Positions 5,689-56,146 of a stretch of DNA of 64,000 nucleotides are shown here, piece by piece (the stretch's first letter is position 1; every line of letters begins with the position of its first letter). Below the pieces are notes generated by a model that saw only the letters and a program-made list of their open reading frames with translations, searched no databases and was not told where the DNA came from. The DNA is from Clostridia bacterium (GTDB taxonomy: Bacteria > Bacillota > Clostridia > UMGS1883): assembly GCA_045546275.1 (NCBI GenBank), contig JAZQCM010000001.1, positions 183,079-247,078 on the forward strand, read 5' to 3'. Position numbers and translations under genes: made by a program.

Positions 5689-6194
5689 TTTTTAAACGTA
5701 AACAACTTACACTCATTATGCTTGCGCTTTTAATCTGCATGGCAGGTTATTTGAATTTTGCATCAAAAAGTACAACCGTATCTGAGGATTACATGGGTCA
5801 GGCTAAGCTTGTGGGGAATATGGAGGACGGAAAAGTGAAAGAAAATGAAGATTTTTTTGCATCTGCAAGGCTCGAAAGAGAAGCCGGAAGAAGCAAATCC
5901 ATCGAAACATTCAACAGCGTAATCAATAATGCTAACAGTGCCCCTGAGGTTAAAACCGAGGCACAGAACGGCATTTTAAAGCTTGCCGATAACACAGAAA
6001 TGGAAACTGCAATAGAGAACCTGATAAAGGCGCGAGGCTTTGAAGATGCAGTTTGCTTTATTAATAATGACCAAGCAAATGTTGTGGTCAAATGTGATAA
6101 TCTTGAAGAACAAAAGGTTTCAATAATTACAGAAATTGTAACAGAACAAACCTCAATTTCTCCGGAAAAAATCAAAGTAGTTGAAATTAAATAA
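5685..6194 (+). CDS. spoIIIAH: Stage III sporulation protein AH (YscJ/FliF-like)
   Basis: 169 aa with an N-terminal TM. Last gene of the spoIIIA operon. Confidence 0.7.
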   Translation: MIFKRKQLTLIMLALLICMAGYLNFASKSTTVSEDYMGQAKLVGNMEDGKVKENEDFFASARLEREAGRSKSIETFNSVINNANSAPEVKTEAQNGILKLADNTEMETAIENLIKARGFEDAVCFINNDQANVVVKCDNLEEQKVSIITEIVTEQTSISPEKIKVVEIK

Positions 6195-6279
6195 AATACT
6201 TGATTATTTATCATAAAATTGTTATACTATAATAAGAAATATGCGGTTAAAACTGCAAATAAAGGACGGAGGAAAAAAC

Positions 6280-6663
6280 ATGGGTGAAAACTATATCTCC
6301 ACAGCAGGTGGTAATATCAGAATTTCCGAAGAGGTTATTTCTATAATTTCAGCAATTGCAGCAAAAGAAGTTGATGGCCTTGCATCAATGGGTGGTTCGC
6401 TTCTTTCCGGTCTTGGCGATCTTATAAGCAAGAAAAACCAGGGTAAGGGCGTAAAGGTTGAGTTTATTGATGATGGTATTGTAATTGAGCTCCACATCAC
6501 AGTGAAATTCGGTGCAAAAATTCGTGAAGTATCTGCCCTCATTCAGGAACAGGTTAAGAACGCTGTCGAAACAATGGTTAGTCTTAATGTTAAGGCTGTA
6601 AATGTTTTTGTTGATGGTATTGAACTTGAAAAAGCAAAAACAGTTGTTGAAGATGCAGAATAA
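6280..6663 (+). CDS. Asp23/Gls24 family alkaline shock protein (YqhY-like)
   Basis: Asp23-like sequence and ~128 aa length. It follows spoIIIAH as yqhY does in Bacillus. RBS GGAGG before the ATG at 6280. Confidence 0.8.
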   Translation: MGENYISTAGGNIRISEEVISIISAIAAKEVDGLASMGGSLLSGLGDLISKKNQGKGVKVEFIDDGIVIELHITVKFGAKIREVSALIQEQVKNAVETMVSLNVKAVNVFVDGIELEKAKTVVEDAE

Positions 6664-6697
6664 TTTATAAATTTTATATACAAAGGAGAGATTTAAA

Positions 6698-8185
6698 ATG
6701 AACAATATTCCCGTAGTAAAAGTTGGTGTTGTATCCGTAAGCCGTAACTGTTTCCCCATCAGTTTAAGCGCAAAAAGAAAAGAAGCCGTAAAGGCTGAAT
6801 GCGTAAAGGCTGGTCTTGATAACGTTTACGTTGCTGATACAATTATTGAAAACGAAATCGATGCAATGAAGGCGCTTGAAGAGCTTAAGGGCGTAGGAGC
6901 GAATGCACTTGTTCTTTTCCTTGGCAACTTCGGTCCCGAAATTCCCGAAACAATGCTTGCTCAGAAGTTCGATGGTCCCGTTATGGTTGTTGCTGCAGCT
7001 GAAGAAAGCCAGAACGACCTTTTTGACGGAAGAGGCGACGCTTACTGCGGTATGCTTAACGCTTCCTACAACCTTGACCTTCGTGGTGTAAAGGCATATA
7101 TCCCCGAATATCCCGTTGGTACAGCTGACGAAATTGCAAAGATGATTGCAGACTTTGAGCCTATCGCAAGAGTTATTATTGGTCTTCATGGCCTTAAGAT
7201 TTTCTCTTTCGGTCCTCGTCCTTACGACTTCATGGCTTGTAATGCACCTATTTCTCCTCTTTACAAGGACCTTGGTGTTGAAATCCAGGAAAACAGTGAG
7301 CTTGACCTTTACGCTGCATACCATGCACATAAGGATGACCCCAGAATTCCTGCAATTGTTGAAGAAATGGCAGCAGAAATCGGTTCAAATAATCCTTACG
7401 AAGGTATTCTTCCTCGTCTTGCACAGTATGAAATTACTCTTCTTGACTGGGCTGAAGAAAACAAGGGTGCTTCCAAGTACTTTATCTTTGCTAACAAGTG
7501 CTGGCCGGCATTCCAGACACAGTTTGGTTTTGTACCCTGCTATGTAAATGGCCGTTTGGCAGCTCGTGGTATTCCTGTAGCTTGCGAAACTGACATTTAT
7601 GGTGCAGTAAGTGAATACATAATCACATGTGCAACACAGAAAACAGCAACTTTGGTTGACATTAACAACTCCGTTCCTAAGGATATGTTCGAAGCTAACC
7701 CCGCTGAATTTGCAGGCTATAAGCTTACAGATACATTCATGGGCTTCCACTGCGGTAACACAGCTAAGGAATGCTTAACATGTGCATCCATGAGCTATCA
7801 GAGAATCATGAAGAGAGATCTTGAACCCGACACAGAACCCGATATTACACGTGGCACTTTGGAAGGTAACCTTATCCCCGGCGAAACAACAATCTTCCGT
7901 CTTCAGTCCACAAAGGATTCTGTTCTTCGTTCTTATGTTGCTGAAGGTGAAATTGCAAACCTTGACTGTAAGAGCTTTGGTGGTATTGGTATTTTCAAGA
8001 TTAAGGAAATGGGTCGTTTCTACCGTCATGTTCTTGTTGCTAAGTGCTATCCTCACCACGCAGGTATTGCATTCAAGCATGCAGGTAAGACTCTCTTTGC
8101 AGCAATGAAGCTTCTTGGTGTTGAAGACGTTGCTTACAACCAGCCTGCAGGTCTTCCTTACAAGGACGAAAATCCCTTCGGTTAA
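6698..8185 (+). CDS. L-fucose/L-arabinose isomerase family protein (FucI-like sugar isomerase, ~495 aa). It is not the canonical AraA.
   Basis: Length and sequence fit the FucI-like isomerase superfamily. It sits immediately upstream of araD. Confidence 0.55.
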   Translation: MNNIPVVKVGVVSVSRNCFPISLSAKRKEAVKAECVKAGLDNVYVADTIIENEIDAMKALEELKGVGANALVLFLGNFGPEIPETMLAQKFDGPVMVVAAAEESQNDLFDGRGDAYCGMLNASYNLDLRGVKAYIPEYPVGTADEIAKMIADFEPIARVIIGLHGLKIFSFGPRPYDFMACNAPISPLYKDLGVEIQENSELDLYAAYHAHKDDPRIPAIVEEMAAEIGSNNPYEGILPRLAQYEITLLDWAEENKGASKYFIFANKCWPAFQTQFGFVPCYVNGRLAARGIPVACETDIYGAVSEYIITCATQKTATLVDINNSVPKDMFEANPAEFAGYKLTDTFMGFHCGNTAKECLTCASMSYQRIMKRDLEPDTEPDITRGTLEGNLIPGETTIFRLQSTKDSVLRSYVAEGEIANLDCKSFGGIGIFKIKEMGRFYRHVLVAKCYPHHAGIAFKHAGKTLFAAMKLLGVEDVAYNQPAGLPYKDENPFG

Positions 8186-9180: not shown

Positions 9181-9256
9181 TGGTGACCCTACGGGGACTC
9201 GAACCCCGGTCTTCGCCGTGAGAGGGCGACGTCCTAGACCGCTAGACTATAAGGCC
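9181..9256 (-). tRNA. tRNA-Glu (anticodon CUC), 76 nt, with an encoded CCA end
   Basis: Cloverleaf folded by hand: acceptor GGCCTTA/TAGGGTC, anticodon stem TCGCC/GGCGA with loop C-U-CUC-A-C, T-arm CGGGG-TTCGAGT-CCCCG. Confidence 0.8.
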
Positions 9257-11559: not shown

Positions 11560-12930
11560 ATGTTGAAAAAATTATTTGCACCTACAGACATGACTGTGGG
11601 AAGTCCCTGGAAAAGCATTGTTTTATTTACTCTTCCAATGCTTATAGGCAATATTGCCCAGCAGCTTTACAACACTGTTGACAGCATTGTGGTTGGTAAA
11701 TATATTGGCGATAACGCGTTAGCGTCGGTAGGCAGTGCTGGTCCTATATTAAACATGCTTCTGGTGTTGTTCATTGGTATTTCCGCAGGTGCCAACATTA
11801 TGGTTTCTCAGTACTTTGGCGCCAAAGACCGCGAAAGCTTATCTTACACCATCGGTAACTGTATTACTGTAACGGCAATATCCTGTGTTATACTGATTGT
11901 GATTGCAACGCCGTTAATCAGACCTGTTCTGGCAATGCTTAATACACCGCCTACTATTATTGAAGGCTGTGGAGACTATCTTATGATTTCCCTTATCGGC
12001 ATTGCGGGCATGGGCTACTATAACATCCTCAGCGGTGTAATCCGAGGCATGGGCGACTCTTTCTCTGCACTTGTATATCTTTTGATTTCTACTGTTATAA
12101 ACATTGTACTGGACATTTACTTTGTTGCAGTTGTGAACATGGGTGTAGGCGGTGTTGCACTGGCTACTGTTATTGCCCAGATGATTTCTTCAATATTTTG
12201 TTTTATAAAGCTTTCAAAAATGCGTGAGCACTTTGATTTTGGGTTTAAATATCTTAAACCAAAGAGCAAATATGTAAATACAATTGTTCGTTTGGGCGTG
12301 CCTTCGGGTCTTACACAGGCTATTTTCTCTTCAGCAATGATTATTGTACAATCCCTTACAAATTGCTTTGGTGAACAGTTTATTGCAGCAAACGTTGTTA
12401 TCATGCGCGTGGATGGCTTTGCAATGATGCCCAATTTTTCATTTGGTACAGCGCTTACCACATATGCAGGTCAGAACGTGGGAGCAAAGCGATATGACAG
12501 AGTTGTGCAAGGTGCAAAGCAGGGAACACTTATTGCTGTTTTATGCTCCACAACAATTACTGTTGCAATTCTCTTTTTTGGCAAATTATTAATGGGTGTA
12601 TTTACCGACACCAAGGAACTTGTTGATTTAAGCTTTTATCTCATGAAAATTCTTGCTGCAGGTTACATTGCCGTTGCAGTAACACAAAGCCTTTCCGGAA
12701 TTATGCGTGGCGCAGGGGACACAATGACACCCATGTGGATATCACTCATTACAACTGTAGCACTCCGTGTACCTGTTGCATACGGAATATCGTTTTTAAC
12801 AAGAAGCGAGCTTCTTCCTTACGGTAGAAGCGAATGCATACAGATTTCACTGCTTGTGTCATGGGTAATGGGCGCAGTTCTTACAGCGCTCTTTTACAGC
12901 AGAGGAAAATGGAAAACAAAAGCAATATAA
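11560..12930 (+). CDS. MATE family multidrug/oligosaccharide efflux transporter (12 TM)
   Basis: 456 aa polytopic protein with MATE-like repeated halves. Terminator at 12934-12958. Confidence 0.85.
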   Translation: MLKKLFAPTDMTVGSPWKSIVLFTLPMLIGNIAQQLYNTVDSIVVGKYIGDNALASVGSAGPILNMLLVLFIGISAGANIMVSQYFGAKDRESLSYTIGNCITVTAISCVILIVIATPLIRPVLAMLNTPPTIIEGCGDYLMISLIGIAGMGYYNILSGVIRGMGDSFSALVYLLISTVINIVLDIYFVAVVNMGVGGVALATVIAQMISSIFCFIKLSKMREHFDFGFKYLKPKSKYVNTIVRLGVPSGLTQAIFSSAMIIVQSLTNCFGEQFIAANVVIMRVDGFAMMPNFSFGTALTTYAGQNVGAKRYDRVVQGAKQGTLIAVLCSTTITVAILFFGKLLMGVFTDTKELVDLSFYLMKILAAGYIAVAVTQSLSGIMRGAGDTMTPMWISLITTVALRVPVAYGISFLTRSELLPYGRSECIQISLLVSWVMGAVLTALFYSRGKWKTKAI

Positions 12931-13051
12931 ACTAAAAGACCTCTATGAGGTCTTTTTTGTATGCAAATTGAGACTTAATATCACTTGTACAAAAATCACG
13001 CTATTTTATTGTGCAATATTAACAAAATATAAAAAGTTTTCAAAAAATTAT

Positions 13052-13080
13052 TGACAATATTGCACAAATGTGTTATTTTA
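13052..13080 (+). promoter_or_regulatory. Candidate promoter TTGACA-17-TATTTT (with a downstream TATAAT alternative). A 12-bp inverted repeat TTGTGCAATATT/AATATTGCACAA flanks the -35.
   Basis: TTGACA at 13052. Inverted-repeat arms at ~13008-13019 and ~13058-13069. Confidence 0.4.
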
Positions 13081-13160
13081 TAATTGAACAAAGGGAAAAC
13101 ACAAAAAGCTGAACAAAGAATAAATCAGCTAAGGGAATTTGAACAGAAGGAGTGTTCGAT

Positions 13161-13351
13161 ATGAGGATGATTAGAGCAGTGTATTTGGCTTAAGTGAATT
13201 TCACTACAAGACAAATGAATAGGATGTGTTCTATATGAAAATGATCAGGGCAGTGTATTTAGCTTAGTGAATTAAATTCACTACAGAATGAATATATAAG
13301 GATGTGTTCTATATGAAAATGATCAGAGCAGTGTATTTTATCAGAAAATAA
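13161..13351 (+). other. Tandem array of three SD-preceded mini-ORFs: 13161-13193 MRMIRAVYLA, 13235-13267 MKMIRAVYLA, 13313-13351 MKMIRAVYFIRK. A palindrome AGTGAA(T)TTCACT follows the first two. Two more SD (GCGGAGGA)-preceded sORFs lie at 13370-13381 (MYD) and 13453-13512 (19 aa).
   Basis: Repeat period of 74-78 nt. The units differ mostly by synonymous or conservative changes (AGG>AAA R>K, ATT>ATC, AGA>AGG, TTG>TTA, TAA>TAG). Each mini-ORF has AAGGAG/AAGGATG 6-8 nt upstream of its ATG. Confidence 0.4.
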
Positions 13352-13672
13352 TACGCGGAGGACAGTCCAATGTATGATTAAAAATTAACCAATCAGTTTG
13401 GTTAACAACATAAACAACTTAATAGTTTCGTTTTGCGCGGAGGATAGGAAAAATGTTAAAGTTCATTTCAGCAAAACAAATCAAACGTATCTTAATCAAT
13501 CCGGGTGTGTAGGAGGACTTACCATTGAATAATTAATAATGGCAAAAACAACCCAACCTGAAGTTTAAAATTTAGTTTACATAAAGAATACGCATTGATA
13601 CTGTGAAACGAAGCTAACTTGAAAGTTGACAATTCAATAGTTTATAAGCAATTTAGTTAAATGTTTATATAG

Positions 13673-13708
13673 AAATCCCGATAACCAAAGTTATCGGGAT
13701 TTTATTTA
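13673..13708 (+). terminator. Intrinsic terminator/attenuator immediately upstream of the choloylglycine hydrolase gene
   Basis: AAATCCCGATAAC-caaa-GTTATCGGGATTTTATTT. Confidence 0.75.
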
Positions 13709-13741
13709 TGAATTTTACCAATACTAAGCTTGGTGATTAAT

Positions 13742-14599
13742 ATGTGTACTGCAATCAGATTTAACAATTCTCTTTTTGGCAGAAATTTGGATGTTGATTC
13801 CTCTTACGGCGAAAAGGTTATTATAACACCAAGAAAATACCCATTTATCTATAACAATAACCACTACGCTTTTATAGGCACAGGAATTGTTATAGATGAT
13901 TATCCGCTGTATTTCGACGGAACAAATGAAATGGGTTTAAGTATTGCGGCATTGAGGTTTAAAGGCTGTGCTTATTACTTCATGCCATTTGACAAAAAGA
14001 TTAACATCCCGTCATATGATTTTATAAATTATATTCTGTCGAACTGCAAAACAGTAAAAGAATGCAAAAACTTGTTGAAGAATGTTAATATTACGAACAA
14101 AAGCTTTTCTGAAAAACTACCTAATGAACCTTTACATTGGATGATTTCGGATAAAAAAGAATCAATTACCGTAGAAAGTGTAAAAAACGGCTTGAAAATT
14201 TACCATAATAAATATGACATTTTAACAAATGAACCCACTTTTGACATTCACATTGAAAATATTGAAAAAGAAAAGATAATATCATGGGATTATTCCGCTG
14301 AGTCAAGGTTTTTACGAGGAGAGCACATTAAGTGCATTTCGTCTGCAGGAAATAATAAAAACGAGAAAATCAGCTGCTTTTTTCACATTCTATCCTCAGT
14401 AGCACAACAAAAGAATACCCAAAAGAATGAATTTACTTTGTATTCCTCCTGTTGTGACATTGAAAAAATCATTTATTACTATAAAACCTATGATAATTTT
14501 TCAATTCGCTGTGTTGATATAAATAAAGAAAACTTAAATGGCAAATCTCTTATTTGTTATGAAATGAATAATGATTTTCAGATATTTGAGCAAAATTAA
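13742..14599 (+). CDS. Choloylglycine hydrolase family Ntn-hydrolase (bile-salt hydrolase / penicillin V acylase-like linear amide C-N hydrolase)
   Basis: Cys directly after the ATG start (MCTAIRF..NLD), which is the Ntn Cys nucleophile motif. ~285 aa, typical of the family. The ORF-track start at 13730 is TTG; the ATG at 13742 is preferred. Confidence 0.75.
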   Translation: MCTAIRFNNSLFGRNLDVDSSYGEKVIITPRKYPFIYNNNHYAFIGTGIVIDDYPLYFDGTNEMGLSIAALRFKGCAYYFMPFDKKINIPSYDFINYILSNCKTVKECKNLLKNVNITNKSFSEKLPNEPLHWMISDKKESITVESVKNGLKIYHNKYDILTNEPTFDIHIENIEKEKIISWDYSAESRFLRGEHIKCISSAGNNKNEKISCFFHILSSVAQQKNTQKNEFTLYSSCCDIEKIIYYYKTYDNFSIRCVDINKENLNGKSLICYEMNNDFQIFEQN

Positions 14600-55854: not shown

Positions 55855-55964
55855 TCTAATAACCTCCGTTTGTTTTTTTACAGAATAATGGCATACTCAA
55901 ACAAGGCTTCTTACGAAACCTTAAAAGCGTACAATCCAGTATCCTGTGGATTTATAGTACAAAG

Positions 55965-56122
55965 AAGTGGCAGGTCTTCCGACTCAGTTTCAACGCTTTC
56001 CTCGTCTTCCCGGTTACCCAGTGACATTTTAAGAAAAGCTCCGCATCACGGCAGCAAGGTCTGTCTGGGATTTTCACCCAGTTCCCTATTATGCGTATCT
56101 GCAAAATGCAATACGCCACCTA
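55965..56122 (-). ncRNA. Cobalamin (AdoCbl/B12) riboswitch
   Basis: The minus-strand RNA reads ..AGGUGGC..AAUAGGGAACUGGGUGAAAAUCCCAG..GCUGCCGUGAUG..GUCACUGGG..GGGAAGACG..AGUCGGAAGACCUGCC (B12 box). A ~110-nt expression platform precedes the first ORF, and the segment GCCUUGUUUG can pair with the SD region CAAACGGAGG. Confidence 0.85.
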
Positions 56123-56146
56123 CATCTTTATATTATTCAATTTTAA

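Follow-up and report, generated by a model that had tools for sequence, protein, structure and literature searches.

Analysis of a 64,000-nt stretch of DNA from an uncultured Clostridia bacterium (contig JAZQCM010000001.1, positions 183,079 to 247,078; hereafter the window, in whose coordinates positions are given unless a locus is named) identified a conserved unit that runs from a promoter to an intrinsic terminator (13051-13709) and lies between a MATE efflux gene and a gene of the choloylglycine hydrolase family (CBAH), both on the + strand. The RNA predicted from this unit is ~470-620 nt long across lineages, carries five or six short open reading frames (mini-ORFs), each led by a Shine-Dalgarno sequence (SD), and ends at an intrinsic terminator just 5' of the CBAH gene. 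On sequence evidence, we tentatively read the unit as a translated, structured, translation-sensing 5' leader of the CBAH gene with multiple upstream ORFs, and hold this reading at slightly less than an even chance. It is preferred because its geometry is that of a Firmicute attenuator: a promoter, an apparently translated leader, a terminator 32-70 nt before the next SD, and only weak promoter matches in the intervening gap.

The unit was found in 10 distinct lineages (the window and nine others), in the same position between MATE and CBAH and always directly 5' of the latter; all 10 are metagenome-assembled genomes (MAGs) or metagenome contigs labelled "Clostridia bacterium", from uncultured gut Clostridia. 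Orthologous loci were found through the MATE protein, which has many relatives at 80-88% identity; CBAH was useless for this purpose because its next-best relative is 49% identical. The closest MATE contigs keep the order aldolase, MATE, a gap of ~700 nt, CBAH, pyrophosphatase, and RsmF, and the element is present in every gap. Eighty further loci retrieved by MATE (69-83% identity) from a collection of species-representative genomes contained neither the element nor the MATE-CBAH synteny; at one locus of the MATE scan (L014), another gene lies between. Aligned bases of the element are 73-89% identical between lineages; the corresponding values are 33-49% for four-fold degenerate sites of MATE, which are close to saturation, and 83-93% for the MATE protein. 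The element is conserved as well as the whole MATE coding sequence. This near-constancy across lineages with saturated synonymous sites indicates that the RNA is important to the cell.

A metagenome scan for the mini-ORF core ATGARRATGATNAGAGCAGTG returned 20 matches, all of them chance occurrences inside unrelated coding DNA. Neither blastn in distant mode against plasmids and phages nor two conserved-block patterns run against viral contigs returned a match. Querying Rfam 15 at the gathering threshold with the whole window and five homologous loci returned nothing within the element; in a permissive scan (E<=10) of 12800-13900, the best score was 28 bits, as compared with gathering scores of 38-100, and all hits were driven by the terminator. 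ARAGORN identified no tRNA or transfer-messenger RNA in the same interval. An earlier reading of the window, made from its letters without database searches (the sequence-only reading), had judged that the unit was not a CRISPR array, a repetitive extragenic palindromic (REP) element, or a known riboswitch. Two results bear this out: Rfam gave no match, and three imperfect, ORF-bearing repeat units occur at a single locus in the window.

All of the features which that reading had listed are present where it placed them. The most conspicuous is a tandem repeat of three copies, which start at 13147, 13221, and 13299 (periods, 74 and 78 nt; Tandem Repeats Finder score, 243); three occurrences of its 26-nt core were counted in the window, the number expected from shuffles being 0.00. 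Repeat finder and core counts thus agree with the three ~75-nt direct repeats, each with an SD and a 10-12-codon MxMIRAVY ORF, that had been described, and the copies differ by the synonymous or conservative changes that had been listed (AGG/AAA, ATT/ATC, AGA/AGG, TTG/TTA, and TAA/TAG). The first repeat (13147-13193, + strand) comprises SD1 (AAGGAG) and mini-ORF 1, MRMIRAVYLA-stop, with its ATG at 13161 (ORF 13161-13193); the middle one (13221-13267, +) has the SD AGGATG and encodes MKMIRAVYLA-stop from an ATG at 13235 (ORF 13235-13267); and the last (13298-13351, +) has SD2 (AAGGATG) and encodes MKMIRAVYFIRK-stop from an ATG at 13313 (ORF 13313-13351). Each of the three ORFs starts 8 nt past AAGGAG or AGGATG.

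Copy number of the MxMIRAV ORF varies from one (L094) through two (most lineages) to three (the window and L116), so that the triplication is not confined to the window genome. Mini-ORF 1 reads MRMIRAV plus zero to three variable residues in all 10 lineages, L094 having a single ORF in which it is fused to the last copy. L116 possesses a homologous middle copy that has the AGG codon in common with that of the window; the two-copy and one-copy lineages lack this copy. Of the nine lineages that keep the last mini-ORF separate, eight encode M/V-K-M-I-R-A-V-Y-F-I-R-K and the ninth, L003, encodes MKVIRAVCFIRK; synonymous TAT/TAC, ATC/ATA, and AAA/AAG changes distinguish the lineages in this ORF.

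Downstream of the repeats, SD3 (GGAGGA) leads a three-codon mini-ORF, MYD-stop (13357-13381, +; ATG 13370, ORF 13370-13381), which has three or four codons in all lineages (MYD, MYE, MYEI, MYSH, MYNH, or MGCM) and always stops just before a hairpin, P3, described below. SD4 (GGAGGA) leads the 19-residue sORF4, MLKFISAKQIKRILINPGV-stop (13439-13512, +; ATG 13453, ORF 13453-13512), whose last two residues are variable, or absent in L002, and whose TAG stop codon lies inside SD5. The latter introduces a further three-codon ORF (13512-13536, +; GGAGGA-n7-TTG AAT AAT TAA, or MNN-stop) that is present in all lineages, as MNNY in L003, and varies synonymously (AAT/AAC) at codon 2. The sequence-only reading had counted five SD-led mini-ORFs; all five are present, and this sixth one had been missed.

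Judged from sequence, these mini-ORFs look translated. In all 10 lineages, each of the five ORF types retains an SD at 7-8 nt from its start codon, the start codon itself, the frame, and the stop codon, and comparison of the related loci indicates that the reading frame is conserved, not the nucleotides alone. The pattern GGAGG-n7-10-DTG occurs three times within 171 nt of the unit, as compared with 21 times in the other 63.8 kb, where it mostly marks true gene starts. No lineage has an insertion or deletion in sORF4; its variable columns are distributed 4/3/9 over codon positions 1/2/3, and the ratio of synonymous to non-synonymous variant codons is 6:9 in frame, as compared with 2:12 and 1:13 in the shifted frames. 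Its first six codons (MLKFIS) show synonymous changes only. Purifying selection on the repeated peptide, previously proposed from the three paralogues of the window, is now backed by 19 MxMIRAV units from nine lineages, in which codons 1-7 are 93% identical and the flanks 52-73%. Nearly all of the variation within these codons consists of AGG/AAA (R/K), ATT/ATC, AGA/AGG, and ATG/GTG at the start; M3V occurs once, and V7E in one strain. Past codon 7, copy 1 varies freely, with the endings stop, Y-stop, H-stop, YLA-stop, and YLV-stop. The conserved parts of the peptides are therefore N-terminal (MxMIRAV; MLKFIS...RILLNP) and the tails variable, a pattern that would suit regulatory nascent peptides better than small folded proteins. 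The sequence R-A-V places alanine in the penultimate position, an observation that we offer as a lead only.

Long-range helices were proposed by RNAalifold from 13 sequences and tested on a cleaner alignment of 12 sequences that spans the 3' two-thirds of the element. The test supported P3, helix A, and the terminator: in the structure described here, 97.6% of cells are paired and 12 pairs are changed on both sides; none of 500 shuffles did as well, and all slid controls fall to 34-52% paired. Hairpin P3 (13385-13405, +; UUAACCAA-n5-UUGGUUAA, the palindrome TTAACCAA-n5-TTGGTTAA) takes the form UCCGAAUCG...CGAUUCGGA in most relatives; its nine pairs are 100% paired, five of them are changed on both sides, and in all lineages it begins 3 to 8 nt past the stop codon of the 3-4-codon ORF (sORF3). 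Helix A joins a 5' arm at 13424-13436 (+; AGUUUCGUUUUGC) with 13603-13615 (GUGAAACGAAGCU). Across lineages, it is a helix of 13-14 bp in which AGUUU(U)CGUUUUGC, just 5' of SD4, pairs with GUGAAACGAA(A)ACU ~180 nt downstream, closing a domain of ~185 nt. Pairing is retained in 98.8% of its cells, five pairs change from U-A to U-G, and one compensatory change is seen (L094); in the window, a 1-nt deletion on one arm is matched by a 1-nt deletion on the other. The helix appears in the single-sequence minimum-free-energy (MFE) fold of every lineage.

Helix B, whose 5' arm CGUAUCUU lies inside sORF4 (13486-13493, +) and pairs with AAGAAUACG at 13584-13592, has eight pairs with 99% of cells paired; because it is nearly invariant, with one U-A to U-G change, it rests on complementarity rather than covariation. 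The 3' arms of helices B and A (13584-13615, +) fall within an invariant block, UUUACAUAAAGAAUACGC...GUGAAACGA. Read as DNA, the UUUACAUAAAGAAUACGC block (13577-13605; L001 5962-5990; L118 4948-4976) contains a promoter-like TTTACA, 17 nt, TAYNGT in L001 and L118; this match is probably coincidental, since the -10-like part is not conserved in L003.

Smaller hairpins occur in the 5' part of the RNA. P1 (13107-13130, +; AGCUGA/UCAGCU, with the conserved loop CAAAGAAU) is paired in all 13 sequences of the RNAalifold model and also in the MFE fold; its pairs are invariant and so show no covariation. One hairpin starts at the stop codon of mini-ORF 1 (13193-13205, +; AGUGAA-U-UUCACU), and another lies at the stop codon of the middle mini-ORF (13266-13282, +; AGUGAAUU-A-AAUUCACU). 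For the non-terminal MxMIRAV ORFs, a hairpin begins between 2 nt before and 4 nt after the stop codon in every lineage, and the hairpin sequences themselves differ between lineages (GUGAA/UUCAC, GCGAA/UUCGC, UAAGCAC/GUGCUUA); the first of them also pairs with the next SD in three lineages (L001, L084, and L118). The palindromes at 13193-13205, 13266-13282, and 13385-13405, like MYD-stop, the 19-residue ORF, and the terminator, had all been pointed out previously and are confirmed here. Other candidate pairings were rejected: helix C (UAAAUCC/GGAUUUA) is broken in some lineages, and a hairpin internal to sORF2, GGAC/GUCC around sORF3, a hairpin at AUG3, a pairing X inside sORF4, and a pairing of SD4 with UAUCU did no better than shuffles.

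The intrinsic terminator (13673-13709, +) consists of a hairpin, AAAUCCCGAUAAC-CAAA-GUUAUCGGGAUUU (13673-13702; inverted repeat I5), with a stem of 12-13 bp, followed by the U-rich tail UAUUUAU. It covaries, with five pairs changed on both sides across lineages; a simple terminator scan missed the window hairpin because part of the T-run pairs with an upstream A-run. Across lineages, the terminator stands 32-70 nt before the SD or start of CBAH, and in the window and the relatives scanned, promoter-like matches in this gap are weak or absent; a CBAH promoter downstream of the terminator was therefore rejected as a candidate, its matches being weak only. In L095, the terminator is followed by the last 24 nt of the contig (5078-5101; GAGGGGATAGGAAAAATTGTTCAG), which are similar to the start of SD4/sORF4 (GGAGGATAGGAAAAATGTTAAAG); part of the 3' domain may have been duplicated here, or the assembly may be faulty at the end of the contig.

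At its other end, the unit begins with a sigma-70-type promoter (13051-13079, +) composed of a -35 element TTGACA (13051-13056), a 17-nt spacer, and TGT plus a -10 element TATTTT (13071-13079). This is the top promoter match of the region (10/12, with TG), likewise the best in L001, L118, and L003, and it is nearly invariant in all lineages. Three operator-like boxes accompany it. In the upstream alignment of the 10 lineages, O1 (12968-12984; TTGAGAC-TTA-ATATCAC) is a conserved 17-bp block that becomes a perfect palindrome, TTGATAC-n3-GTATCAA, in L094; O2 (13009-13025; TTGTGCA-ATA-TTAACAA), also detected as inverted repeat I2, is conserved in the same alignment and is a perfect TTGTGCA-n3-TGCACAA in L001, L002, and L084; and O3 (TTGACAATATTGCACAA, 13051-13067) overlaps the -35 element. 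No strand is assigned to O1 and O2. The boxes share the form TTGnnnA-n3-TnnnCAA at spacings of 41 bp (O1-O2) and 42 bp (O2-O3), and look like phased operator sites for some dimeric regulator, which would imply control by a transcription factor. They resemble the Rex box, with a spacer shorter by 1 nt. Just downstream, the 5' part of the RNA contains three copies of the motif GAACAAAG(G/A) (13084-13096, 13110-13121, and 13139-13151), at the predicted RNA 5' end, in the P1 loop, and just 5' of SD1; copies 1 and 3 were reported as repeat D6, and copy 2 was spotted by eye.

The sequences show the anatomy of the unit, its conservation, the coding-type substitutions, the helices, and the absence of a convincing promoter before CBAH; we infer that the mini-ORFs are translated, that ribosomes pause on them, and that read-through of the terminator is the read-out. 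In the mechanism proposed, the strong promoter, flanked by its three phased palindromic boxes, would drive an RNA that is both translated and folded. Ribosomes would load at the five or six strong SDs and translate a relay of mini-ORFs, and a ribosome reaching a stop codon would melt the hairpin located there, namely the hairpins of the MxMIRAV ORFs and, after the 3-4-codon ORF, P3. Translation of the 19-codon ORF would cross the 5' arm of helix B, and SD4 abuts helix A; pausing on the nascent MxMIRAV and MLKFIS..RILLNP peptides may accordingly shift which helices form, and the balance among them would set the amount of transcription, or of stable mRNA, that extends past the terminator into the hydrolase gene. 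A more specific version of this proposal seems unlikely to us: that the unit represents a new class of nascent-peptide riboregulator, in which MxMIRAV and MLKFIS..RILLNP are ligand-dependent arrest peptides that switch on a rapidly diversifying amide hydrolase through the stop-codon hairpins and helix A. The ligand would then be a gut small molecule, e.g., a bile-acid conjugate or an amide-containing translation inhibitor such as a phenicol, the latter suggested by the penultimate alanine of MRMIRAV.

Several observations weigh against a translation-sensing leader. Duplex scans, truncated folds, and a rank test did not recover an antiterminator conserved across lineages, and the 5' arm of the terminator remains unpaired in folds that stop before its 3' arm. 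As a competitor, the 3' arm of P3 is the best candidate, and would be brought near the terminator by helix A; it is the top-ranked partner of the terminator 5' arm in only five of the 10 lineages, at -8 to -14 kcal/mol. The stop codon of the last mini-ORF lies ~135 nt before the terminator, and is therefore too far away for a ribosome there to act on it directly. Inspection of the peptides did not reveal a known stalling motif (IFVI, IAVV, R/K-x-R/K, or xA/T-D-K), and MRMIRAV.., MKMIRAVYFIRK, and MLKFISSKQIKRILLNPxx contain no tandem run of codons for one amino acid. The RNA is far better conserved than the CBAH that it would regulate, and in other clades (L122-L126), the regions upstream of CBAH homologues with 65-69% identity are short and ordinary, without a long leader. 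Given the operator-like promoter boxes and the greater conservation of the RNA than of the gene, control may act at initiation, and the RNA may have a function of its own. The earlier suggestion of serial stalling leader peptides, or an attenuator, thus stands with respect to the translated-looking ORFs, the position before CBAH, and the lack of a convincing promoter in the gap, and does not with respect to a conserved antiterminator or a known stalling motif.

Because no antiterminator is conserved across lineages, attenuation stands as a candidate mechanism, and a stand-alone multi-sORF RNA remains a serious rival, which we rank as rather unlikely. The unit would in that case produce an abundant transcript under transcription-factor control, in the manner of RNAIII, SR1, or Pel; this transcript would encode small peptides, and its folded 3' domain would act on other targets, with CBAH expressed by leak-through. 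From its sequence, the unit is discrete, with its own promoter and terminator and a conserved peptide, as in dual-function small RNAs; the promoter is strong, conserved, and provided with three phased boxes, the terminator covaries, and helix A closes a domain of ~185 nt. The want of a conserved antiterminator, the conservation of the RNA well beyond that of CBAH, and the occurrence elsewhere of CBAH homologues that lack the leader would all fit as well. However, no target or seed was found, and nothing complementary to the 15-nt mini-ORF core occurs in the 64-kb window; the RNA is rich in SD rather than anti-SD sequences, and CBAH would be left without a convincing promoter. The element never occurs apart from CBAH, a weak point because all 10 lineages share the same synteny.

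Less probable again is that the peptides function as free products, i.e., as a signal, a membrane-active peptide, or a toxin, with the RNA structure only tuning their translation; the cationic, hydrophobic 12-mer MKMIRAVYFIRK and the 19-mer MLKFISSKQIKRILLNPxx would be the candidates. Constraint at the peptide level, a dosage of one to three MxMIRAV copies, and a strong SD on every ORF are consistent with this, but conservation is confined to the N-termini, copy 1 is a peptide of 7-10 residues whose tail varies, and two of the ORFs span just three or four codons. Among the flanking genes scanned, no dedicated exporter or processing gene is evident except the widely conserved MATE, and the peptide strings are absent from the literature searched. 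Very improbable is a sponge that titrates a CsrA-like RNA-binding protein or 30S subunits through repeated GGA/GGAGG motifs. AAGGAUGU resembles the CsrA consensus obtained by systematic evolution of ligands by exponential enrichment, five or six GGA motifs are present, and the number of repeat units varies. Against this, a start codon and a frame-keeping ORF lie 7-8 nt past each GGA motif, two of these ORFs show coding-type substitutions, and the motifs lie mostly outside hairpin loops, at a density far below that of CsrB or RsmZ; a sponge is unlikely because all of the motifs look like working SDs that serve an ORF. No CsrA or FliW gene occurs in the 64-kb window, a span too small for this to mean much. 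Resemblances by eye to boxA, TRAP, HutP, ANTAR, and CodY-box sites were dropped, as they are not conserved across lineages.

Among the known systems closest to the unit are the Firmicute leaders of ermC/ermA/ermK, cat86/cmlA, and ABC-F genes. These also contain short SD-led ORFs, sometimes two in tandem (ermA), conserve the N-terminal part of the peptide and leave the tail free, carry hairpins melted by a ribosome at the end of the ORF, and, in their transcriptional versions, place a terminator just before the regulated gene. The unit differs in having five or six ORFs rather than one or two and 470-620 nt rather than ~100-250 nt; in lacking an arrest motif (IFVI, +x+, or Ala/Thr then Asp-Lys), an SD-hiding hairpin at the hydrolase, and a conserved antiterminator; and in preceding a gene that is not a known resistance gene. 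Around the CBAH SD (GGTGAT), no hairpin that would hide this SD or the start was found; an SD-hiding hairpin occurs only between mini-ORF 1 and the next mini-ORF, in some lineages. With trp/his-type attenuators it shares SD-led short leader ORFs and a terminator directly before the gene with no convincing promoter between. The trp/his/leu/ilv attenuators and the mgtA and mgtCBR leaders of Salmonella (with one or two sensing ORFs) read leader translation through alternative helices, as proposed here, and mgtCBR, with two ORFs in one long structured leader, is akin to the unit in this respect. Unlike the amino-acid attenuators, the unit lacks regulatory codon runs, and an overlapping set of 1:2, 2:3, and 3:4 helices could not be established.

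RNAIII (hld) of S. aureus, SR1 (SR1P) of B. subtilis, and Pel/sagA of S. pyogenes resemble the unit in their size of ~0.5 kb, in having their own promoter and terminator, in long-range helices that close domains, and in encoding one or more small amphipathic or cationic peptides. The unit differs from them in its many ORFs and its location 5' of a promoterless-looking gene, and no C-rich or anti-SD loops or identifiable targets were found in it. Its shortest ORFs, MYD-stop and MNN-stop, are like the bar minigenes of phage lambda (AUG AUA UAA), which are SD-led ORFs of 2-4 codons; unlike these, they are chromosomal, lie within a conserved structured RNA, and show no sign of peptidyl-tRNA drop-off or toxicity.

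The general kind of element, whether a translated leader or a dual-function RNA, is thus already known. What appears new, with no match in Rfam or in the literature search, is the combination of five or six SD-led mini-ORFs, each of which terminates at a hairpin or the following SD, with a long-range helix and a terminator, before a hyper-variable CBAH. The literature search recovered no relevant paper on a leader or riboswitch for CBAH or bile-salt-hydrolase (BSH) genes, no cis-regulatory RNA for genes of this family, no paper for the peptide strings, and none describing such a multi-mini-ORF architecture. The unit is a clean candidate for a new RNA family, whichever mechanism holds. CBAH enzymes form the bile-salt-hydrolase/penicillin-V-acylase family, and enzymes of the bile-salt-hydrolase family shape the bile-acid pool of the gut. 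As a sensor, the unit would rank as an unusually elaborate switch coupled to translation, and would offer a route to the inducer of the hydrolase. Action in trans would instead make it a large RNA of dual function, in gut anaerobes that have received little study; an RNAIII-like dual-function master RNA in gut Clostridia would, if true, be as novel as the ligand-sensing riboregulator considered above.

The hydrolase gene itself (13742-14599, +) encodes 285 residues beginning MCTAIRF and matches the choloylglycine hydrolase family (PF02275) at a Pfam E-value of 1e-70. The proteins of the relatives are longer (307-324 residues; the L001 gene lies at 6118-7077) and are 42-45% identical to that of the window, as compared with 56-69% among themselves, and CBAHs from unrelated genera (e.g., Eubacterium callanderi, P0062) are as close to those of the relatives as the latter are to one another. 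The flanking genes are 85-99% identical; between the relatives and the window, identity is 99% for the aldolase and 95-96% for the pyrophosphatase. Such fast divergence of CBAH suggests either replacement by gene transfer or diversifying selection.

On the other side of the unit, the MATE gene (PF01554; 11560-12930, +; loci L004-L083) is unusually conserved, with 69-88% amino acid identity in many Clostridia MAGs with entirely different neighbourhoods. At L001, a Gut-1 RNA (RF01706; 52.8 bits, gathering score 50) was identified at 2655-2730, beside a tRNA and between the aldolase and MATE genes; the window has no Gut-1 match, and the same interval there holds a gene with VWA/SLH domains and a tRNA-Glu (9181-9256, - strand). 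A cobalamin riboswitch (RF00174, 100.7 bits) lies at 55952-56139 on the - strand of the window.

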